Source of the DNA: Promethearchaeota archaeon | GTDB lineage: Archaea > Asgardarchaeota > Thorarchaeia > Thorarchaeales > Thorarchaeaceae | Length of the DNA: 64,000 bases | Assembly: GCA_014728035.1 (NCBI GenBank) | Contig: WJMJ01000101.1 | Coordinates: 32,001 to 96,000, forward strand | Direction of reading: 5' to 3' | Shown: one piece after another, positions 378-28,077 of the stretch | Position numbering within the stretch: position 1 is the stretch's first letter | Layout: each line of letters begins with the position of its first letter | Notes under the pieces: generated by a model | Seen by the model: only the letters and a program-made list of their open reading frames with translations | What the model was told of the DNA's origin: nothing | The model's database searches: none | Translations under genes and position numbers: made by a program

Positions 378-931
378 ATATGATTGACGATCCAATCTTA
401 CAACAATTAATTTCTAAAGTAGCACAACATGAAACACAAAATGACATCGATGATATTGATGACAATATGGGTGAAGACATAGATGATACACACGATGAAG
501 ACATAGATGATACACACGATGAAGACATTGTCGAACCAGATGATATAGGTACTAGTGACATTGTGCCCACAGAAGATGCAGACACCGAAGTGGATGCTAT
601 TAATGCAGATATATCAGACGGCAATAATACGCCTGAAGACGATATTGATAATGATCTTAATAACAAATTCAACGAAATGGTAAACGAAGTACATCAAAAT
701 TATAAACAAGATAGAGAGAATATATCTGATTTTATAGAATTCCTTAAACACAAGATTGAAAATGACGAAGGCATGCCTGTGCGCGTATATTATGAATCAC
801 TGTCTTCTTGTCTGCGAACAAAATCAGAATCATCTGCTACCATGATAAAATTGCTAGACAATATCAATAAAAGAACAAATAAAGAGAGTGGTGGCCTTAA
901 TATTAATTTGCAAGAATTATTGCAAGAATGA
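374..931 (+). CDS. Acidic hypothetical protein, candidate terminase small subunit by position only
   Basis: 185 aa with a D/E-rich N-half and helical C-half; ATGA overlap with terL. Confidence 0.55.
   Translation: MNMIDDPILQQLISKVAQHETQNDIDDIDDNMGEDIDDTHDEDIDDTHDEDIVEPDDIGTSDIVPTEDADTEVDAINADISDGNNTPEDDIDNDLNNKFNEMVNEVHQNYKQDRENISDFIEFLKHKIENDEGMPVRVYYESLSSCLRTKSESSATMIKLLDNINKRTNKESGGLNINLQELLQE
472..528 (+). repeat. 24-nt coding tandem repeat (EDIDDTHD, about 2.4 copies)
   Basis: TGAAGACATAGATGATACACACGA repeated exactly. Confidence 0.9.
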
Positions 932-3900
932 ATGATTTAACCAAAAGCAAAATTAGAAAAGTCATTAAGGATTGCCAAAGTTCCTGCGATTATTTTATTA
1001 ATAAATATTGCAAAGTTAAGCACCCATCTGCTGGCATCATACCTTTTACCACTTTCTCATATCAAAAGAAATGCCTAAGAGCATTTCAAGAACACCGGTT
1101 CAACATTTTCAGTAAAACCCGACAATGCTTTGCTGAAGGTAGCATGGTTTGGACTCCTTTAGGCCCAAAACCCATAGAAAGCATAAAACCACATGACATT
1201 ATATATACATTAAAAGATGGTATTTTGACTACGGCGCAAGTCAGTAAAGTGTTTAACAATGGTTCTGCAGAATGCGTTCAGGTGCGCACCAAGTCAGGAC
1301 ATAGATCTATCAGCACACCAGATCATAAATTTTTAACCTATGATGGATATAAGGAAGCATCACTATTAACTCAAAATGATATTCTTGTGGAAGTTAATGA
1401 CCTACCTCACTATAATACAACAGATAATAGATCCAAAGCAATACTTCTGGGATACCTAATAACCGACGGATATTGTGCAGGATCTGCTCATTTTACCAAT
1501 ACCAGATGGAAATATCTATTGGATTTCCAAAAACATTACGAACTTTTGTTTAATGACAGATTGAAAATTAAGAAGCATTCAACATCTGGTTTTGGATCTG
1601 AGGCAGCATTCCGCATATGCTTGCGTAAAGACGGCAAAGAATGGCTAAAGAAATTGGGAATATGGGGATTAATAGGAGAAAATAAGCGCGTACCTAACGA
1701 AGTTTTTTCTTGGGATAATGATTCTATAGCGATCCTTATTAATAGGATGTTTGCTGGCGATGGATGGTATACAGGATCGATAAACACTAATGAGGCAGGG
1801 ATTGGATCTGAATCTAATATATTGTTGCATCAAATCAAGCAATTGTTATCAAGATTTGGCGTAAATTCAAAATATTGTCCAGCGAATAAAATATCTTTAC
1901 CTAAATTGCGCATAGTGGGTGGTAGAAGTTTTAAGAGATTTCATGATATAATAGATATATTTGGTAAGAAACCAAGACACAAAATAACGAAAGGATTTAT
2001 ATTTAACCGCAAAATTGGTCAAGTCTTGTCTGTTACGCCAGTGGACGGTAATAGACAAGTATATGATTTGCTCGTACCACCAAATCATAATTATGTGGTG
2101 GACGGAGCCGTAGTTCATAATTGCGGAGCGTCAACTCTATCTGGGTCTTTTGCTTTATGGTTTACCATGTTCTTTGGAAACAAAACAACACTCATCACCT
2201 CGAAAAGAGATAATGATGCCAAAGAATTTATGGGCAAGAATATCAGGTTTGTGTGGGATAATCTTCCTGATTGGATGAAATCAATTTGGCAACCCACAGT
2301 TGACAACGAACACGAATTTGGATTTTCCAATGGATCTAAAATTAAATCATTGCCATCCGGACCACATACATTAAGACAATTTTCATCATCTCTCAATATC
2401 ATTGATGAGGCTTCTGTATCTCCACATATGGAAGAAATGTGGGCATCTGGATCTCCCACGTTACAACACGGAGGTCGATGTTTATCCGAAGATTCATTGA
2501 TTGTTACACGAGATGGGTTGGTTTCTATAAGCAAAGTGAAAGATGGTGATGACATCATATTAGATGGTATACATAATGTAGAGTCCAAATACGTCAACAA
2601 AGACATTGAAGACACCATTTCTATAACCACTAGTGATGGACACTATGTACAAGCAACTCCAGATCATAGATTTAAAACAATAAACAATGATGGTGACATA
2701 TCATGGAAATTAGTGTCTGACTTATCATTGGGCGACCACCTAATACTCGATTGTGAAGAAATACAATATGGTAGTATACAAGAATTAGACGACAATATTA
2801 ATAAACTTATTGCTATAAAATGTGGTTGCGACAATGGATGTATTAGCTGCGCAACCTCGATGAATATGTTGAGAAATAAACATATTCCGAAGAGTCTAGA
2901 TGAGAATTTATCATTATTATTGGGGTGCGTATGGGCAAATGGGTTTATTCAAGATTGTGGCAGAATTGGTATATCATATAATAGTAAGTATGGTGATTTA
3001 TCAGATAAAATAAAATCAATAATAAATAATATACCCCATATGCACACATGGGAAGAACAACACAATGGGGATCACAGTATACGGTTTCATTCAAAGTCAC
3101 TGACACTTGCTTTGGAATTAAATGGAATTATAAAAGCATCAGCGAATTATATAGAAATACCCAGTTTGATTTTGAAATCGCCTGAAAATGTGCGTTGTTC
3201 TTTCTTGCGTGGATTTTTTGAACTAGATGGTAGTATATCAGGCGATCAAGTATCAGTGTCTTCCACCAGTCTACGCATGCTAAGACAGATACAAATTATG
3301 CTTCTTAATATGGGAATGCGCAGCATAATTGCTACGTATGAAAGAACCAATGGATATGCAGAGGGACTACAACATGAGTTAACCCTCAAAACCAAGAATG
3401 ATGTGATTAAATTTAGAGATAAAATTGGGTTTCTAAGTACTTATAAACTTAATCTTTTAAATAATGTAAATGCAACTAAGCGATCGCACAATGATCGTTT
3501 CACACATCAAAACGCAATTGATAAATTTTATGACGCCAGCAAATCTTTACCGTCAACTACTAGACAGAGAATATTACAATGCAAAAGAAATTCATCCTTG
3601 CCCAGATATCTAGCCAAAACCATGTGTGAACATGAATGTTTAAAGAATACTTCATTGGGGATATTAGCCAACACCAATAAGTTTACAGATACTATTGTGA
3701 ATTTAGAACAATCAAAATCTTATGTACAAGATATACAGGTGTCAGATATTAATTCTTATGTAGCCAATGGTTTTGTATCACACAATTGTTTAGTAGTCGC
3801 GACTAGTAATGGCATAGGCAATTGGTATTGGAAGACATGGACTGATGCGGTCGCTGGTTATAATAATTTCCACCCAATCGTTATCGATTGGTGGGATATG

Positions 3901-5082
3901 GATTGGGAAATTAGATATAAAGATTCAATAAGCGGTAAGATGATCATATTATCGCCAACGCGTAACATGAGAAAATGCAGAGATGAAAAAGAAAGAGCAA
4001 AATATGGCCCATATTGGAGTCCATGGTTAGAAAATGAATATAGACAACTGGTTGCCCGTGGCGGAGAGAATCTGTTCAGACAAGAAATATTGAGGGATTT
4101 TCTTGGTAGTGGCAATACAGTTATATCGCGTGATGCCATTTTACATATTAGGGAGACTGAAAACAGAGATTATGAAACAGTTAAAAATGTGGATTTTGTA
4201 CACCCAGTGACAGGAGATAACCACAGAATAGAATTTGATGATAACTTATGGGTGTGGAGAAAACCACAACCTGATCATGTGTATACAGTTGGTGTTGACA
4301 TTTCTGGTGGAGAATCACACGACTGGTCTGCCATAGAGGTATTTGATGTCTTGGAACAAGAGCAGGTGGCGGAGTTACAGATCAAAACCACCCCAACTAA
4401 TCTTGTAATGATGGTAGATTTCATCGGTAGATGGTATAATAATGCCATAGTAGTTCCTGAGCGTACTGGTATTGGGCAGACAGTTTGCCAAGATTTAGAA
4501 GTGGCACATTATCCACGGTTGTGGCGACGTAATATGTTACACAATGGAAAGGATAAAAATAGCACCAAAAAATCAAACCATGTTGGCTTCTTAACCACTG
4601 GATCAGGAAAACCAATCATAAATAGAGCATTAATAGATAATTTGGGTCCAGATGGATACAACATATATTCGCACAGATTATGTCAACAAATCGAAACATA
4701 TGTACATCTTGGTGCTGGTAAAACTGGTGCTGAAAAGGGCACATTAAATGATGATTTACCAATTGCATCTGGATTGGCATTTATAGGTGCAGATCAAGCA
4801 GTAGTACGTGGTAATAATATATTATTACCATTGATTTCTGATGTTAATAGTATTACCAACAAATATACTACACAAAGAAATAATGATGGACCAAAAGTAA
4901 TTAAGGACCATAATGCCCTTCAACCAGTGGGCACAAAACAGGAACCAGATAGGAATACAGACATCCAAAAGCAGGTTACCGAATTCACCACAAATCTGAT
5001 CAAACAGCCCAATGTAGAACTTCCACGGGTAAAGAAACGTAATGATAATGGTCAGAAATTGCTGTTTGGAATTCGCAAATAA
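928..5082 (+). CDS. terL: Terminase large subunit (T4 gp17-like) with two inteins
   Basis: YQ adenine-binding motif, KTRQ/CGAST Walker A region, IIDEA Walker B, ATSNG motif III, RNase H-like VGVDISGG and NDD; lies directly upstream of the portal. Confidence 0.95.
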   Translation: MNDLTKSKIRKVIKDCQSSCDYFINKYCKVKHPSAGIIPFTTFSYQKKCLRAFQEHRFNIFSKTRQCFAEGSMVWTPLGPKPIESIKPHDIIYTLKDGILTTAQVSKVFNNGSAECVQVRTKSGHRSISTPDHKFLTYDGYKEASLLTQNDILVEVNDLPHYNTTDNRSKAILLGYLITDGYCAGSAHFTNTRWKYLLDFQKHYELLFNDRLKIKKHSTSGFGSEAAFRICLRKDGKEWLKKLGIWGLIGENKRVPNEVFSWDNDSIAILINRMFAGDGWYTGSINTNEAGIGSESNILLHQIKQLLSRFGVNSKYCPANKISLPKLRIVGGRSFKRFHDIIDIFGKKPRHKITKGFIFNRKIGQVLSVTPVDGNRQVYDLLVPPNHNYVVDGAVVHNCGASTLSGSFALWFTMFFGNKTTLITSKRDNDAKEFMGKNIRFVWDNLPDWMKSIWQPTVDNEHEFGFSNGSKIKSLPSGPHTLRQFSSSLNIIDEASVSPHMEEMWASGSPTLQHGGRCLSEDSLIVTRDGLVSISKVKDGDDIILDGIHNVESKYVNKDIEDTISITTSDGHYVQATPDHRFKTINNDGDISWKLVSDLSLGDHLILDCEEIQYGSIQELDDNINKLIAIKCGCDNGCISCATSMNMLRNKHIPKSLDENLSLLLGCVWANGFIQDCGRIGISYNSKYGDLSDKIKSIINNIPHMHTWEEQHNGDHSIRFHSKSLTLALELNGIIKASANYIEIPSLILKSPENVRCSFLRGFFELDGSISGDQVSVSSTSLRMLRQIQIMLLNMGMRSIIATYERTNGYAEGLQHELTLKTKNDVIKFRDKIGFLSTYKLNLLNNVNATKRSHNDRFTHQNAIDKFYDASKSLPSTTRQRILQCKRNSSLPRYLAKTMCEHECLKNTSLGILANTNKFTDTIVNLEQSKSYVQDIQVSDINSYVANGFVSHNCLVVATSNGIGNWYWKTWTDAVAGYNNFHPIVIDWWDMDWEIRYKDSISGKMIILSPTRNMRKCRDEKERAKYGPYWSPWLENEYRQLVARGGENLFRQEILRDFLGSGNTVISRDAILHIRETENRDYETVKNVDFVHPVTGDNHRIEFDDNLWVWRKPQPDHVYTVGVDISGGESHDWSAIEVFDVLEQEQVAELQIKTTPTNLVMMVDFIGRWYNNAIVVPERTGIGQTVCQDLEVAHYPRLWRRNMLHNGKDKNSTKKSNHVGFLTTGSGKPIINRALIDNLGPDGYNIYSHRLCQQIETYVHLGAGKTGAEKGTLNDDLPIASGLAFIGADQAVVRGNNILLPLISDVNSITNKYTTQRNNDGPKVIKDHNALQPVGTKQEPDRNTDIQKQVTEFTTNLIKQPNVELPRVKKRNDNGQKLLFGIRK
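1126..2121 (+). mobile_element. Intein 1 with LAGLIDADG homing endonuclease (332 aa), inserted in the TerL Walker A region
   Basis: Starts CFAEGS, has block B TPDHKF, LLGYLITDG and MFAGDG motifs, ends VVHN followed by Cys. Confidence 0.93.
2479..3786 (+). mobile_element. Intein 2 with LAGLIDADG homing endonuclease (436 aa) in TerL
   Basis: Starts CLSEDS, has TPDHRF and FLRGFFELDG, ends VSHN followed by Cys. Confidence 0.93.
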
Positions 5083-22287: not shown

Positions 22288-22596
22288 ATGGGCGATCGTG
22301 TCATAATCTACGGAATGCCAAATTGTGGGAAATGTGAAGCAGCGAAAGATAAGCTCAAAAGATTTAACATACCATTTGAAGAGGCATCATACGAGAAATT
22401 TGTTACTGTGCATGATGGTTGGAGAAATGATGGTAGTATAAAGGTTATGGCGGCACGCAATTATTATGGTGAGACTCATGTGCCATTGATCAGACAGAAC
22501 GGTACGGTATTTGATTATCCAAGTTTCATGAAACATTTAAAGAATAACAGATTGACACCAGACAGGAGTAAGCATGCCACCGAGGTTCGTGTCTAA
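22288..22596 (+). CDS. Glutaredoxin/NrdH-like redoxin
   Basis: IIYGMPNCGKC..VP; GGAGG RBS; overlaps the nrdD start. Confidence 0.85.
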   Translation: MGDRVIIYGMPNCGKCEAAKDKLKRFNIPFEEASYEKFVTVHDGWRNDGSIKVMAARNYYGETHVPLIRQNGTVFDYPSFMKHLKNNRLTPDRSKHATEVRV

Positions 22597-25396
22597 GAGA
22601 GATGGTCGTAGCGTTTTATTTAATAAAAACAAAATAACTGAATCAATACTGGCCGCATCATCTGAGGTGAAACCATTCACACGTGATGATGTCATGCCCA
22701 TAGTTGATTCAGCTATTGAATTACTGCATCATGAAAAGATCGATGCAACGTCTATTTATAAGGTAGTTGTTGATACTATACAAGGAAATGGCCATCCGGA
22801 CGTTGCAGATGCGTATGTTGATTATCGGAAGACACGCACAAATATTAAGAGTATAACTAAAGTGCGTAAGCAGGTGTCCGGCCATAATGATGCTACAGAT
22901 ATCAATTTGCTGGTAAGTCCAGAAAGTAAAGCAGAATATCATGGCTGGGATAAATCAAGAATTGCAGATGCTCTTGTGCTGGAAGCTGGTGTAAACAGAA
23001 CAGAGGCAGAAGAGATAGCCGCAATAGTTGAGAGGCGCATATTTAAATCCGGCATAACGATGGTGTCAACGTCTCTCATCAGAGAACTGGTTGACAATGA
23101 ATTATTTGAAAGAGGATATCAGAACTCACTTCAGAAACAACGTGTTATTGGTATGCCACGGCATGACATAGAAGAACTGATATTTTCTAAGAGCAAAGAA
23201 AACTCAAACATAGCGACCAACAATCCAGAAGCTGTGGGGCATTCAATAGCAGAGACTGTTCTTAAACAGTATGCATTGCAGGAAGTGTTTTCAGAAGAAG
23301 TAGCAAATGCACATAGAATGGGCATTTTTCATCTGCATGACTTGGGATACCCACACAGATTATATTGTGGAAGCCATTCCGTTGAATATATTAAGAAGTA
23401 CGGGTTGAGATTACAAAATCTTGATTCATTTTCTGCACCAGCAAAGCATGCACGTAGTCTCACCACTCAACTCAATACATTTTTAGCTAGTATGCAGGCA
23501 TATTATGCCGGTGCTCTTGGTGTTGCGCATATCAACATAATGTACGCACCATTGGTAGACGGAATGTCTGACACAGAATTGAAGCAGGAAGCACAACATC
23601 TTATATTTCAAGCATCACAATCTGCCTATACGCGGGGTGGGCAGTCGGTCCATGGTGATGAATGTATTATCATATACGACACGATCGAAGATAGAACATA
23701 TTATCCTACTATTAGTGAATTTTATCTAAATTTTGTTAAGGATCGGTATCATACATTGTCTATGAATCGATCTAATGGTATGTTGGAATGGAAATCCATA
23801 TTGGGCGTGGTGCAGCATAATCTACGATCAGAGCTTATGAAAGTAACTATAGCAAACGGTTTGTCAGGGATATTTACTGAAGATCACAGTTTGTTTACTG
23901 TAGATGATGGCCAAATTGTTGAATGTATGACAAGCAAAGCCCATAATATTATGGTATATCATGTGGGTGATATGCCAGATTATGTTTCTCTATGCGATAA
24001 GATTAGTAATGATCCAATAGCAAAGCTGTGCGATGTGAGTATCGAGCCATTTAATGATGGAAGTAAATATGTATATGATTTATCAGTAGCTGATAATGAG
24101 AATTTCTTACTATTAAATGGTATTATAGCCCACAACACGTTGTTTAGTGATTTTAATATTCATACTGGAATACCTTCATATCTGAAGGATGTGGATGCTA
24201 TAGGTCCTGGTGGTGAATATAATGGCAAGAAATACGGTGATTATGCCGAGGCGGCTACCAGGTTCACTAGAGCCATGATGGAAGTGTGGTATGAAGGAGA
24301 TGGGGATGGTCATCCAATGGCTTTCCCGAAGAGTGACTTCCACATTAGTCATGATACATTTGAAGATCCTGAGCAAGTTAAATTACTTGATTTTGCTTGT
24401 GAGACGGCAGCAAAAAATGGATCTACATATTTCATATTCGACAGAGATGAGGTTACATTATCTGCATGTTGCAGGTTGAGAACAGCAGTGCGTGATCAGT
24501 ATATGATCAAGCACCCGGAAAGTCTGCGTTTTTGTGGATTTGGGAACATAACCATCAACTTGCCACAATGTGCATATCGTGCTGGTCGTGGTAATATAAA
24601 GAAATTTCACGAAGAACTTGAGAGTGCGATGCATTTAGCTGTTGATGCGCACTTGCAAAAACGCAAGTTTGTAAATAGATTAATGAGTGGGCCATCCATG
24701 CCATTGTGGCAAGTTGGCAAGATTGCTTTTGATGGTCGTAAATATGTTGATTTAGACACGTGCACATATATTATAGGCATTATTGGCTTGAATGAATGTC
24801 TTCATTTCTTGACAGGCAAGGAACTTCATGAAGACGAAGACATGCTTCGCCAAGGACTTGAAATCATAAGTTATATGTATTTTGTGGCCAAAGAATACGG
24901 TGACATGCACAATATGAAGTTTTCTCTTGAAGAAAGTCCTGCAGAATCAGCGTCAAGACGTTTGGCCAAAATAGACGTACAAAATTATGCCTGTGCCGCC
25001 GATTTTGTGCGTGGTGATGTTGATGCTGATGAAATGTACTACACAAATTCTATTCATCTTAGGCCCGATGCAGATGTTGATATCGTAACTCGTATTAAAT
25101 CACAATCTAGATTCCATGATCTCATAGAATCTGGCGCTATTATACACGCTTTCGTAGGAGAAAATCAACCATCTCCTGGTGCAATCAAGAGTCTGGTTAC
25201 AAAGACTTTCTATAACACACATGCAGCCCAAATAACAATATCGCCAGAATTTACTGTATGTAGTTGTTGTGGGTCCATTAGAGTTGGAATGACAGACATA
25301 TGTTATAAATGTGGATCCAGGAATATTGATGCTTCGAGAGAAGACCCAAATCGCGAATTTAATGGGTGGGATAGAAACATAATCTCTCAATTGTAG
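22574..25396 (+). CDS. nrdD: Anaerobic (class III) ribonucleotide reductase large subunit with tandem ATP-cones and a mini-intein
   Basis: VSKRDG cone, HLHDLG..YC, SACCRL finger loop, EESPAES, YYTNS, C-terminal CxxC..CxxC zinc site. Confidence 0.93.
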   Translation: MPPRFVSKRDGRSVLFNKNKITESILAASSEVKPFTRDDVMPIVDSAIELLHHEKIDATSIYKVVVDTIQGNGHPDVADAYVDYRKTRTNIKSITKVRKQVSGHNDATDINLLVSPESKAEYHGWDKSRIADALVLEAGVNRTEAEEIAAIVERRIFKSGITMVSTSLIRELVDNELFERGYQNSLQKQRVIGMPRHDIEELIFSKSKENSNIATNNPEAVGHSIAETVLKQYALQEVFSEEVANAHRMGIFHLHDLGYPHRLYCGSHSVEYIKKYGLRLQNLDSFSAPAKHARSLTTQLNTFLASMQAYYAGALGVAHINIMYAPLVDGMSDTELKQEAQHLIFQASQSAYTRGGQSVHGDECIIIYDTIEDRTYYPTISEFYLNFVKDRYHTLSMNRSNGMLEWKSILGVVQHNLRSELMKVTIANGLSGIFTEDHSLFTVDDGQIVECMTSKAHNIMVYHVGDMPDYVSLCDKISNDPIAKLCDVSIEPFNDGSKYVYDLSVADNENFLLLNGIIAHNTLFSDFNIHTGIPSYLKDVDAIGPGGEYNGKKYGDYAEAATRFTRAMMEVWYEGDGDGHPMAFPKSDFHISHDTFEDPEQVKLLDFACETAAKNGSTYFIFDRDEVTLSACCRLRTAVRDQYMIKHPESLRFCGFGNITINLPQCAYRAGRGNIKKFHEELESAMHLAVDAHLQKRKFVNRLMSGPSMPLWQVGKIAFDGRKYVDLDTCTYIIGIIGLNECLHFLTGKELHEDEDMLRQGLEIISYMYFVAKEYGDMHNMKFSLEESPAESASRRLAKIDVQNYACAADFVRGDVDADEMYYTNSIHLRPDADVDIVTRIKSQSRFHDLIESGAIIHAFVGENQPSPGAIKSLVTKTFYNTHAAQITISPEFTVCSCCGSIRVGMTDICYKCGSRNIDASREDPNREFNGWDRNIISQL
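23645..24136 (+). mobile_element. Mini-intein (164 aa, no endonuclease) in NrdD
   Basis: RGGQ|SVHGDE.., block B TEDHSLF, VYDLSV..NENF..IIAHN|T. Confidence 0.9.
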
Positions 25397-25462
25397 ATAT
25401 TTAGATTCCCCGCATCAAAAATAATATGTAGGCGTCAGCAATCTTACCGTTTTGATGGGGGT

Positions 25463-25600
25463 ATGCAAATGCCAAGTTGCTGCAGGGAAGCGAAAGTATT
25501 ACACGAAGCATATTATGATGGCCATTTGTTTAGATGGTTGAGATGTGATATTTGTGGTGGTTTGCGTCTAGAGAAAGTGGACCATCAACGGGTTGCATAA
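25463..25600 (+). CDS. Small zinc-ribbon protein (45 aa, below the ORF-track cutoff)
   Basis: MQMPSCC...LRCDICG; GGGGG RBS-like site. Confidence 0.55.
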   Translation: MQMPSCCREAKVLHEAYYDGHLFRWLRCDICGGLRLEKVDHQRVA

Positions 25601-25730
25601 TTACACCCTATGTACAATTGATGTCGGCAATATATAATATTAACTAACAATGTCAGGCCCTCATCCTCGGGCCTAAGCTCACCCACGATGGTGAGTAATC
25701 TCCGGATGGAGACCATACAACGGGTGTAAT
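25600..25730 (+). ncRNA. Putative structured RNA / leader abutting the first CRISPR repeat
   Basis: Closing stem ATTACACCC/GGGTGTAAT plus three internal GC-rich hairpins (25655-74, 25678-95, 25699-712). Confidence 0.55.
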
Positions 25731-26056
25731 GTGACGTCCACGTACGCATGGGAGGATGGAAAGGAGGGCCAGCCATGGCTTCGATCTACAAGTGACGTCC
25801 ACGTACGCATGGGAGGATGACACGCCTTAGTCTCTCAGAGTCACAGTGGCCGGTGATGCCCACGTACGCATGGGAGGATGGCTTGATGTGGTTGCTTCGG
25901 CACAAAAACATTGCGTGATGCCCACGTACGCATGGGAGGATGGACTATGTAGCCGCGTGCCGCTCTTTCCGAACGTGACGCCCATGTGGGAGGATGGCCG
26001 ACGGCGAACGGTGTAGATTCGGCGTGACGCCCACGTACGTATTGTACGCGTGGATG
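25731..26056 (+). CRISPR. Cas-less CRISPR mini-array, type I-E-like (6 repeats, 5 spacers)
   Basis: 29-nt repeat GTGAYGYCCACGTACGCATGGGAGGATGR at 25731, 25792, 25853, 25915; degenerate copies at 25975 and 26024; unique spacers of 32, 32, 33, 31 and 26 nt. Confidence 0.92.
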
Positions 26057-26074
26057 ATATAGGAGGTATATATT

Positions 26075-26353
26075 ATGGGATATTATATTCGTACATGGTT
26101 CGCTTGGGTGATATCGGCACACCATTTTTGCGATACTATTTCTTTGGCAGCAAGAAAATCCAAATTTGACAAAGGAATTGAATCATTGAGAATGATCTAT
26201 CAAACAATAGACAATCTTGGATGGCGATATTATCCAATGAAATTATATATATATCTGTATCATAATGATCAGATGGATCTTTTCTCATTATATAATGAGA
26301 TGTCAATATATAAGGATTCGGACAAAAATATTAAAACAAAATTGCCTACATAG
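26075..26353 (+). CDS. Hypothetical protein immediately downstream of the array
   Basis: AGGAGG RBS; 92 aa; no Cas motif recognised. Confidence 0.55.
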   Translation: MGYYIRTWFAWVISAHHFCDTISLAARKSKFDKGIESLRMIYQTIDNLGWRYYPMKLYIYLYHNDQMDLFSLYNEMSIYKDSDKNIKTKLPT

Positions 26354-26362
26354 GAGAATCAA

Positions 26363-27004
26363 ATGTCCGAGTCTAATGAAGTCATTGAAGAGCGCAAAGA
26401 TCTTACCGAGATTCCTGGCAATCCAGCATTTGATGGTCGTAGGAAATGGGATCTCATTATGTCAATGGAAGATCCAGAGGAGCTTGCAGAAACACTTCGC
26501 AATCTATTCACTGGTCCTGGTGCTGGTAAGTCTGCACAAAAACAGCTTGAAAACATTAGAGTGGTTATGGGTGATAGAGAACCACGTAGTGGTCAAGAAT
26601 CGTTTTATTTGAGTCAGGCACACAGATATGGTCCAGTAGTTGCTCTTCAGGACATATTTAAGAACTTTATTCTTGGGGCGATGGGTCTTGGTGGCGGGAT
26701 AATTCGTAGAGAAGACCTTGACAAAGAATATATGATGGTTGGCGAGGACACTGAGATAGAGATTGATGGTAAACGATTTTTATTGGAGAAGGGCGATAGG
26801 ATTGCCGTGACTTCTAAATCGGTGGTATCTGAAGAAGCCATGCGTTTGTATTTGGTGTCTGGTGGTGATTATGGTATGTTTGAACAACCAGTTGTTGTAT
26901 GCAATGAAGACGATCTGGATGATGCTATTGAGATGATGAGAACAAAAGTTGATTCGGTCACTGTGAATCCAATTGGCAATCCAGTATCAACGCGTGGTTA
27001 TTAA
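26363..27004 (+). CDS. Hypothetical protein
   Basis: AGGAG RBS; contains IDGKRFLLEKGDRI. Confidence 0.75.
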   Translation: MSESNEVIEERKDLTEIPGNPAFDGRRKWDLIMSMEDPEELAETLRNLFTGPGAGKSAQKQLENIRVVMGDREPRSGQESFYLSQAHRYGPVVALQDIFKNFILGAMGLGGGIIRREDLDKEYMMVGEDTEIEIDGKRFLLEKGDRIAVTSKSVVSEEAMRLYLVSGGDYGMFEQPVVVCNEDDLDDAIEMMRTKVDSVTVNPIGNPVSTRGY

Positions 27005-27026
27005 ACACACAAATACGGAGAATAAG

Positions 27027-27359
27027 ATGAAAAAGTTGACTATGAATGAATTCGTAGTATCATCCGATTTTAAAGCCATTGTTGAAGGCGACACGATTCT
27101 GTTTGAACGTGGTGATATTGTTACATGTGGTAAAGGCAAGTCTCTTGATGCCGATGTAGAAGCAATATTGGGTGGGAATTCATACTTGCTTGAAGCCGGG
27201 GATAAAATTCAGCTGAAAGAATCAAAGAAAAAGCTAGTAAAAACTAAATCCCTGGGCAAAGATCAAGACCATGATGAATATGATGAAAAAGACAAGTACG
27301 ATGAAAAAGATGAATATGATGAAGATGAATATGATGAAGAAGATTATGACGAGGACTAG
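27027..27359 (+). CDS. Hypothetical protein with acidic YDE repeat tail
   Basis: GGAG RBS; two LxExGD motifs; (DEYDE)n tail. Confidence 0.75.
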   Translation: MKKLTMNEFVVSSDFKAIVEGDTILFERGDIVTCGKGKSLDADVEAILGGNSYLLEAGDKIQLKESKKKLVKTKSLGKDQDHDEYDEKDKYDEKDEYDEDEYDEEDYDED

Positions 27360-27399
27360 CAAGACATAGAATATATAATCAATTATTAGATGACGTATA

Positions 27400-28077
27400 G
27401 TGAAGAAGATAAGAACATGTGCTGATGCAGTTCTTATAGGTTCATCAGCTACACATTTTTGGTTCCCTGACTTCAGACTTAAAGATTATGATTTTTATGC
27501 ATACCCCAGTTTTATTGGCAGATTTTTAAAAACCAATCCTAGTGCTGCACTCATAAAACAGCACAAATCCATAAAATATTACGAGCTTAATGGACAGTCC
27601 ATAGATATCGTTTGTGATACTGGTGTCAATGGTATTGGTGAAATAGTAGATGCCAATTGTGGTTCAGCTATTATTGAATTATTTGGTCTTAAGGTGCTGG
27701 TAGCCAAACCAACAACATTGCTTCTTATAAAGAAGTTATATTCTTGTACGAATTCACGTTGGCATAAGAACTTATCTGATTATATGTTCTTAAAGGAAAA
27801 CGTAATGGAGGAACCTAGCCGCGATGAATTAGCGGCCATCACCAAAAGAACTGCATATATGTGTAATGTGTGGAGAGGTAAAAATAATCGTAGATTCACG
27901 CCAGAAGATGTAATCAATCGACTAGAACATAGTCAAGACAGAGTAGCAGATTTATATAAAATTGTAAAAGAAGCAGATTTTAATACAAATGAATGGATAC
28001 GTGACAATATTGATCGCTTGCGTGAAATTCCTCAGTATAATTCTACTAACACCACATTTACATCATTGGTGATGTAG
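27400..28077 (+). CDS. Putative nucleotidyltransferase-fold phage protein
   Basis: VLIGS..A......KDYDF motif and KxxxD near the C-terminus. Confidence 0.55.
   Translation: MKKIRTCADAVLIGSSATHFWFPDFRLKDYDFYAYPSFIGRFLKTNPSAALIKQHKSIKYYELNGQSIDIVCDTGVNGIGEIVDANCGSAIIELFGLKVLVAKPTTLLLIKKLYSCTNSRWHKNLSDYMFLKENVMEEPSRDELAAITKRTAYMCNVWRGKNNRRFTPEDVINRLEHSQDRVADLYKIVKEADFNTNEWIRDNIDRLREIPQYNSTNTTFTSLVM

Follow-up and report, generated by a model that had tools for sequence, protein, structure and literature searches.

What is the 131-nt segment that stands directly ahead of a short CRISPR-type array in this DNA, and with what kind of effector does it belong? The segment (25600–25730) sits between the stop codon of a 45-aa Cys-rich ORF (25463–25600) and the first repeat, within a stretch of 64,000 nucleotides (hereafter, the window) that is part of contig C70 (121 kb) in a bin of 4.3 Mb, 173 contigs, and 8.5% contamination. 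An initial reading of the letters alone (the original prediction) had proposed a multi-hairpin RNA, fused to the array, that displays a short anti-repeat in a loop. Here, we followed this proposal through the structure of the segment, its copies in the same phage, and its relatives in other metagenomic contigs.

A three-hairpin RNA ahead of the mini-array

Folded as RNA, the 131-nt segment reached −43.6 kcal/mol (z = −3.9), a value that none of 200 shuffled sequences equaled, and the three consecutive hairpins expected ahead of the array were all found at the predicted place. Hairpin H1 (25655–25674) is formed by AGGCCC and GGGCCT around the loop TCATCCTC (25661–25668), H2 (25677–25696) by GCTCACC and GGTGAGT around CACGAT, and H3 (25699–25712) by TCTCC and GGAGA around GGAT. 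A covariance model built from the relatives described below matched positions 25654–25714 with an E-value of about 1e-15, which was its single match in the window. Based on this model, RNAalifold, and pair counts, we annotated 25654–25714 of the plus strand as a conserved scaffold RNA with three hairpins. An Rfam search of window positions 24000–27500 gave no meaningful match.

Since G–U pairs are frequent in the scaffold stems and are compatible with the plus strand only, we assigned the RNA to the plus strand. The minus strand of the window copy, taken alone, folds slightly better than the plus strand; it was ruled out as the RNA strand on account of these G–U pairs and of the orientation of the copies, which are all co-oriented with the arrays and genes.

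The array that follows has a geometry like that of type I-E, with a 29-nt repeat, a stem-loop (the stem of which contains a C–A mismatch), an 8-nt 3′ handle, and a 61-nt period. Repeat 1, GTGACGTCCACGTACGCATGGGAGGATGG (25731–25759, plus strand), is followed on the same strand by repeats 2–4 (25792–25820, 25853–25881, and 25915–25943; 29 nt each, with spacers of 32–33 nt), by a truncated repeat with a deleted hairpin loop and a retained 3′ end, GGGAGGATGG (25975–25997), and by a degenerate terminal repeat that has lost its 3′ end (26024–26052). The H1 loop TCATCCTC is the exact reverse complement of GAGGATGA in repeat 2 and pairs with the 3′ end of repeat 1, GAGGATGG, with one G–U pair. The predicted complementarity between this loop and the repeat end GAGGATG(A/G) is therefore present in the window.

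The phage carries six such arrays of 2–6 units each, and all their spacers are unique. Across them, the 3′ end GGGAGGATGG is retained in most truncated or degenerate repeats, a few having lost it, including the terminal repeat of the window. Because most truncated repeats keep that end, the conserved unit appears to be the repeat 3′ end plus the downstream spacer, a layout that fits a type V crRNA and not a type I-E crRNA processed by Cas6e. Several repeats have an intact 3′ end and no hairpin loop, and thus lack the intact hairpin expected for Cas6e processing. Searches for spacer targets yielded only chance-level matches within the bin (the best being 17 nt) and no convincing match in the phage collection, which also contained no DNA similar to the window locus. 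In IMG/VR, the exact H1 and H2 sequence patterns had no match, and a degenerate repeat pattern had one chance match, in a GC-rich coding region.

Six near-identical modules in a T4-like phage

The gene content of C70 is T4-like, including a large terminase, portal, tail fibre, baseplate, and NrdD with an intein. Within the bin, the window repeat is confined to C70, C131, and C74. A stretch of 78 nt, from TCAGGCCC up to repeat 1, recurs in near-identical form 5′ of five more mini-arrays, which alignment of the copies placed at C70:19354, C70:19911, C131:6886, C131:9648, and, on the minus strand, C74. The phage bin thus holds six near-identical copies in total, each directly 5′ of a mini-array. 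BLAST searches with the leader and repeats against 86 genomes of the bin's family recovered only the bin itself. As C131 holds the bin's one gp23 capsid gene, C70 and C131 probably derive from a single phage genome. The effector gene described below is encoded neither in the window nor on C70, and we infer its membership in the same genome from the binning, the single capsid gene, and the identical modules.

Some features of these contigs are recorded here in their own right. In the array behind copy C131a (C131:6956–7100), the 5′ half of the repeat differs (ATCGTCTTCGTGCGCGTGTGGGAGGATGG) and the 3′ end is the same; the linker after hairpin 3 of this copy is also different. The window encodes an anaerobic ribonucleotide reductase, NrdD (22574–25396), with an ATP-cone and an intein at about residues 373–521, and a 1384-aa terminase large subunit (928–5082), the matches of which are split by helicase- and endonuclease-like inserts that probably represent inteins or homing elements. 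The bacterial fraction of the bin holds a Cas1 gene and arrays of its own with a 37-nt repeat, GTTTCAGTCAGACTAGTAATAGGGTTGAAAG (C36:6331–6565, C83:8478–8815, and C104:413–1270), which are unrelated to the phage arrays.

Comparison of the six copies also set the limits of the element. The RNA had been proposed to extend over the whole of 25600–25730 and to be closed by an outer stem of ATTACACCC (25600–25608, plus strand, overlapping the stop codon of the ORF at 25463–25600) and GGGTGTAAT (25722–25730). This inverted repeat does exist in the window copy, where its 9-bp run was equaled in 7 of 2000 shuffles. The arm ATTACACCC, however, is located upstream of a promoter-like site and is present in the window copy only; it is missing upstream of the other five copies, which display merely chance-level runs of 4–6 nt of complementarity to the linker. 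For this reason, the closing stem was placed outside the conserved element, and its 5′ arm is probably not a component of the functional RNA. The proposed extent accordingly holds for the inner part, 25654–25714, which recurs and covaries, and not for the outer closing stem.

A consensus scan identified the promoter-like site, TGTACA–16 nt–TATAAT, at 25611–25638 of the plus strand (10 of 12 matches). Its −10 part, AATATATAAT, corresponds to a motif, TGATATATAAT, that abuts H1 of the scaffold in four of the other five copies (C131b, at C131:9648, is without a clear copy) and that recurs at further intergenic sites of the phage. This motif is probably a phage promoter, from which the RNA would start at hairpin 1. 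Between the −10 motif and the scaffold, the six-copy alignment revealed a 14-nt insertion, ATTAACTAACAATG (25639–25652, plus strand), in the window copy only. The linker between the scaffold and repeat 1, ATACAACGGGTGTAAT, which is part of CCATACAACGGGTGTAAT (25715–25730, plus strand) and includes the 3′ arm of the closing stem, is kept in five of the six copies and varies in relatives. Several related contigs share a different motif 5′ of the scaffold, TT(G/T)ACAAC with an AT-rich stretch (L036:7302–7340, L032:1492–1530, L030:2260–2290, and L031:7470–7500), which may be the promoter of those phages. The small flanking ORFs at 25463 and 26075, which had been put forward as possible partners of the RNA, had neither a family match nor a counterpart at related loci and were set aside; small zinc-ribbon ORFs upstream of several scaffolds showed no convincing homology.

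The scaffold is linked to a nuclease-dead Cas12f-like protein

The two scaffold copies on C131 flank the gene for P0001 (C131:7211–8602), a protein of 463 aa. A Pfam scan of P0001 gave no match. In a phmmer comparison, it matched the Cas12f of PDB chain 9nzq (E = 1.5e-6), and the profile of its family matched 9nzq at 2e-23, AsCas12f at 1e-18, the published dCas12f 9n9c at 1.7e-13, and TnpB (9nzp) at 7e-11. In the alignment, Ala replaces the RuvC-I Asp and Phe replaces the RuvC-II Glu of P0001, which also stops short of the zinc finger and RuvC-III. All 26 aligned relatives have the same early end and no catalytic residue at either aligned RuvC position, although the alignment at RuvC-II is less certain for a few rows with gaps. 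The active RuvC of type V-F was thus found neither in P0001 nor in these 26 relatives, and, judged by sequence, the P0001 family is nuclease-dead and Cas12f-like.

The gene order on C131 is P0001, P0002, a Cys-rich ORF, the second scaffold with its array, and a 230-aa protein. P0002 (C131:8701–9438, 3′ of P0001) is a stand-alone RAMP/Cas7(Csm3)-like protein that is found in virus-only clusters of the ESM Atlas, one of which is called RAMP protein; the Cys-rich ORF of 61 aa (C131:9455–9640) lies between P0002 and array 2. P0002 was considered as a conserved neighbor and rejected, as it is absent from nine related loci, in which a different protein of ~210 aa occurs. The 230-aa protein of C131 (C131:10076–10768) is a homologue of this conserved neighbor (E = 2.7e-39). 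In relatives, this partner has ~204–230 aa and is usually encoded directly downstream of the dead Cas12f-like gene (for example, L031:6855–7469, L033:7454–8092, L037:6221–6859, and L039:3836–4495). It has no Pfam family, and comparisons of its fold model (mean pLDDT 76) using Foldseek and VIA-align detected no PDB match above background. A Pfam scan of the C131 neighbors found no rpoE/sigma or HTH genes.

The three stems covary in relatives

A word-based homologue search with P0001 recovered only P0001 itself. An exhaustive HMMER search identified 189 relatives at E ≤ 1e-3, with 25–37% identity, and we examined the metagenomic contigs of eleven of them. Nine independent contigs carried the same RNA architecture on the strand of the Cas12f-like gene, so that the link between the scaffold and a Cas12f-family effector is seen on C131 and nine other contigs. 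Their common plan consists of a GC-rich H1 with a 7–9-nt loop, RARGC, H2, NNAA, H3 with a GGAK-like loop, and the repeats. In L033, L036, and L042, H2 is of a shorter type.

RNAalifold, applied to a plain MAFFT alignment, returned exactly the three helices of this plan, and 16 of the 17 pairs in them carried compensatory changes, with both sides changed. When the alignment was fitted to the model, 86% of the cells were paired versus 62% in shuffles. None of 500 shuffles gave an equally good covariation score, which collapsed when the partners were slid by one column. Conservation and covariation in related phages, singled out beforehand as a test on which the proposal depended, were thus found in nine independent contigs, and they support a structured scaffold RNA attached to the array. 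A second pairing had also been suggested, between loop 1 and the GGATGG at hairpin 3. It is unsupported: even in relatives that have a wholly different loop 1, the H3 loop reads GGAT/GGAG, and it thus does not vary with loop 1.

Three arrangements in the related contigs deserve separate mention. On L044, six 29-nt repeats with a 61-nt period (GTCGGACCCACGGGCGTGGGGACGGCGGG; positions 1–330) precede a dead Cas12f-like relative, and type I-E-like array geometry therefore recurs in the P0001 family; this contig begins inside the array, and the scaffold falls outside the captured sequence. On L030, a gene call of the public record (2401–2673) is in fact a regular CRISPR array with 32-nt repeats, five copies of which run to the contig end. 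The same contig carries, at 806–925, a scaffold and a single repeat-like unit directly 5′ of the start codon of the dead Cas12f-like gene. Its guide position overlaps the ribosome-binding region of that gene, an arrangement that may represent autoregulation.

The H1 loop and the repeat end change together

We then compared the H1 loop of each scaffold with the repeat of the array behind it. In 13 of 13 distinct scaffold/array pairs, the loop complements the end of its own repeat over 6–8 nt, with a sequence that differs by locus, and the paired segment always stops 0–2 nt before the spacer. The pairings are UCAUCCUC with GAGGAUGR in the window phage, ACUCGCC with GGCGAGU in L030a, CUCUCA with UGAGAG in L030b, CUUGCU with GGCAAG in L031, CUUCCG with UGGAAG in L032, CUCUAG with CUAGAG in L037, CCCAUG with CGUGGG in L039, and CCGCAA with UUGCGG in L043. 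Three further pairs lie on one contig, L033 (CUGUGC with GCACAG, CUGUGG with CCACAG, and CCGUGC with GCACGG), and two on L042 (CCUGUG with CACAGG, and CCUGUA with UACAGG). Single-base compensations between loop and repeat are thus seen within one contig, both in L033 and in L042.

For ten pairs, the mean Watson–Crick run was 5.8 nt between cognate partners versus 2.7 nt between non-cognate partners, and neither the 100000 partner permutations nor the 20000 loop shuffles ever reached the cognate sum; in the first loci, the repeat boundaries had been read after the complementarity was seen, and L030a is a single unit with a subjective repeat boundary. L042 and L043, which were retrieved once the model already existed, provide an out-of-sample comparison: the model alone pointed to their scaffolds, and all three new pairs (3/3) conform. 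Covariation, both in the stems and between the loop and the repeat end, was thus observed in the homologues, as the original prediction had anticipated. Together, these results support the notion that the anti-repeat is real and under selection, and the covariation in 13 pairs bears out the suggested likeness to the tracrRNAs and scoutRNAs of class 2 systems.

A proposed guide scaffold for a non-cutting effector

We propose that 25654–25714 is a guide-scaffold RNA of ~60 nt, which would be transcribed from the TATATAAT motif on the plus strand and form the 5′ portion of the array transcript. The H1 loop, 8 nt long, would serve as a short anti-repeat that pairs with the last 7–8 nt of each repeat (GAGGAUGR), just 5′ of the spacer, and the scaffold and a repeat–spacer unit would together be bound as the guide RNA by the phage's own nuclease-dead Cas12f-like protein, P0001. 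Joined in cis, the scaffold and the first unit would amount to a natural single guide; the later units would be served by the scaffold in trans, as by a tracrRNA or a scoutRNA. As the anti-repeat has just 6–8 nt, assembly would need the help of protein. The resulting complex would bind its presumed target DNA without cutting it, leading to silencing or blocking and not to destruction. We give a probability of roughly 0.7 to this reading, according to which a tracrRNA/scoutRNA-like scaffold makes each repeat–spacer unit a guide for a DNA-binding, non-cutting Cas12f.

The same pairing between loop and repeat could instead act as a switch in a cis-acting leader, controlling the folding, processing, or stability of the pre-crRNA, with the leader forming no stable component of an effector. 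Such a role would agree with the short complementarity and with the scaffold being always in cis with the array, and the RAMP/Cas7-like P0002 of the C131 locus might process the hairpin repeats. However, the RAMP is missing in all nine related loci, whereas the scaffold and the Cas12f-like gene are always present, and the combination of several hairpins with a guide-adjacent pairing recalls the guide scaffolds of Cas12f and TnpB, including those in recent work on dead Cas12f (PMC13472631 and a structure preprint, 10.1101/2025.06.10.658880). We therefore consider a switch of this kind unlikely.

Mimicry is another conceivable role, in which the dead Cas12f and the scaffold would sequester crRNAs that belong to a type V or other host system with the same repeat end and thereby disarm immunity. 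Although the effector is phage-borne and nuclease-dead, and both a phage dead-Cas9 with a tracrRNA (Altae-Tran et al. 2023; PMC10910872) and RNA anti-CRISPRs (PMC11656645) offer precedents, these phages have arrays themselves, in which the spacers are unique and which are in part long and regular (L030 and L043), and a search of 185,579 species genomes with the window repeat pattern gave no match, no host array with this repeat being found there or in the bin. Moreover, a decoy of the dead-Cas9 type is hard to reconcile with a loop that follows the repeat variants of the phage itself, even inside one contig (L033 and L042). These observations render mimicry very unlikely.

An ordinary leader of virus mini-arrays that hijack a host type I-E Cascade, with hairpins devoid of RNA function, is also judged very unlikely, since the 29-nt repeat, 61-nt period, stem-loop, and 8-nt 3′ tail, and the published examples of virus mini-arrays exploiting host systems (PMC11656645), are outweighed by compensatory changes that preserve three RNA helices and a loop/repeat pairing needless for a DNA leader, by the retention of repeats with a destroyed hairpin, by the consistent linkage to dead-Cas12f-like genes, by the different 37-nt repeat of the bin's own arrays, and by the lack of matches to the Cas7e (PF09344) and Cas6e (PF08798) profiles in the bin, in a search to which the control genomes responded poorly. 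Given the I-E-like repeat hairpin and the 61-nt period, use of the repeat by a host class 1 system keeps a small probability. The type I leader frame from which the locus was first viewed is not supported, as the linked effector is nuclease-dead and Cas12f-like despite the I-E-like geometry.

The guide-scaffold reading can be extended to a more elaborate picture, which we regard as speculative and rather doubtful. The RNA would be an intermediate between single omega/sgRNAs and split tracrRNA/crRNA pairs, held together by a kissing contact between loop and repeat, and the six modules of a lytic T4-like phage would silence genes of the host or of rival phages via the dead Cas12f, the ~210-aa partner, and the Cas7-like RAMP, the latter maybe processing the I-E-like hairpins, in a hybrid of class 1 and class 2.

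If the guide-scaffold reading is correct, the phage would achieve CRISPR-type targeting with almost no protein, using a non-cutting Cas12f-like protein of 463 aa, a 60-nt helper RNA per small array, and no adaptation genes. The covariation provides a rule for guide assembly, namely that the loop and the repeat end change together, and the minimal anti-repeat of 6–8 nt bears on how single transposon guide RNAs were split into tracrRNA and crRNA. The metagenomic family of 189 members, along with its partner protein, could give very compact programmable DNA binders. A word of caution also follows: phage arrays of type I-E geometry need not rely on a host type I system.

Comparison with known systems

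One close parallel is the tracrRNA:crRNA of type V-F Cas12f (AsCas12f, OsCas12f, and Un1Cas12f1). Both have a small effector that, by sequence, has the Cas12f fold and a multi-hairpin helper RNA, encoded next to the array, that pairs with the spacer-adjacent repeat segment, and in both the guide lies 3′ of the repeat. Unlike type V-F effectors, the protein here is without the RuvC-I and RuvC-II residues, the zinc finger, and RuvC-III. The anti-repeat here is a 6–8-nt hairpin loop in place of a long duplex, the anti-repeats of characterised Cas12f tracrRNAs being much longer, and the helper is fused 5′ of every mini-array, six times around the phage genome, with no adaptation genes. The scoutRNA of Cas12c and Cas12d, as reportedly described by Harrington et al. 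in 2020, is a small structured RNA with an anti-repeat of a few nucleotides that is needed together with the crRNA. The scaffold resembles it in presenting a short anti-repeat within a small structured RNA and differs in having a Cas12f-like effector and in its probable transcriptional fusion to the array.

In TnpB omega-RNAs and TldR guides (bioRxiv 10.1101/2023.11.30.569447), the scaffold likewise lies 5′ of a 3′ guide. TldR-type effectors, which phages use for RNA-guided repression, are truncated, nuclease-dead RuvC proteins (10.1101/2023.11.30.569447) and share the trait of a truncated, dead RuvC with P0001. In contrast to TnpB and TldR, the system described here has repeat–spacer arrays and a separable scaffold, and its protein is nearer to Cas12f (2e-23) than to TnpB (9nzp, 7e-11). 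Virus mini-CRISPR arrays and RNA anti-CRISPRs (PMC11656645) are similarly short, without nearby cas genes, and scattered in the virus genome. Those arrays use host repeats and host effectors, whereas this phage encodes an effector-like protein and a dedicated scaffold RNA. The hallmark of an RNA anti-CRISPR is a solitary repeat unit that mimics the repeat of the host and has no functional spacers; the arrays here have 2–6 units, with unique spacers.

In the literature, we came across no description of dispersed scaffold–array modules with a phage dead Cas12f. The nearest publication is that of Hoffmann et al. (Nature 2026; PMC13472631), who described a dead Cas12f that is associated with sigmaE and single guides. 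They also noted briefly another dead-Cas12f cluster, linked to arrays, in which covarying structured RNAs 5′ of the CRISPR loci are putative gRNAs. In the structure preprint (10.1101/2025.06.10.658880), the gRNA has four paired regions followed by the guide. As in the dCas12f of Hoffmann et al. (9n9c), a C-terminally truncated dead Cas12f is here combined with a structured scaffold that lies 5′ of the guide. Unlike the dCas12f–sigmaE system, which resides on Bacteroidota chromosomes, the phage system has no rpoE/HTH partner. It has true arrays in place of fixed single guides, a different conserved partner of ~210 aa, and a scaffold at each of six dispersed arrays. The P0001 family is also nearer to active Cas12f (9nzq) than to 9n9c; it may correspond to the array-linked cluster of Hoffmann et al., which is unnamed. 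The scaffold is a new variation on the Cas12f guide-RNA theme.
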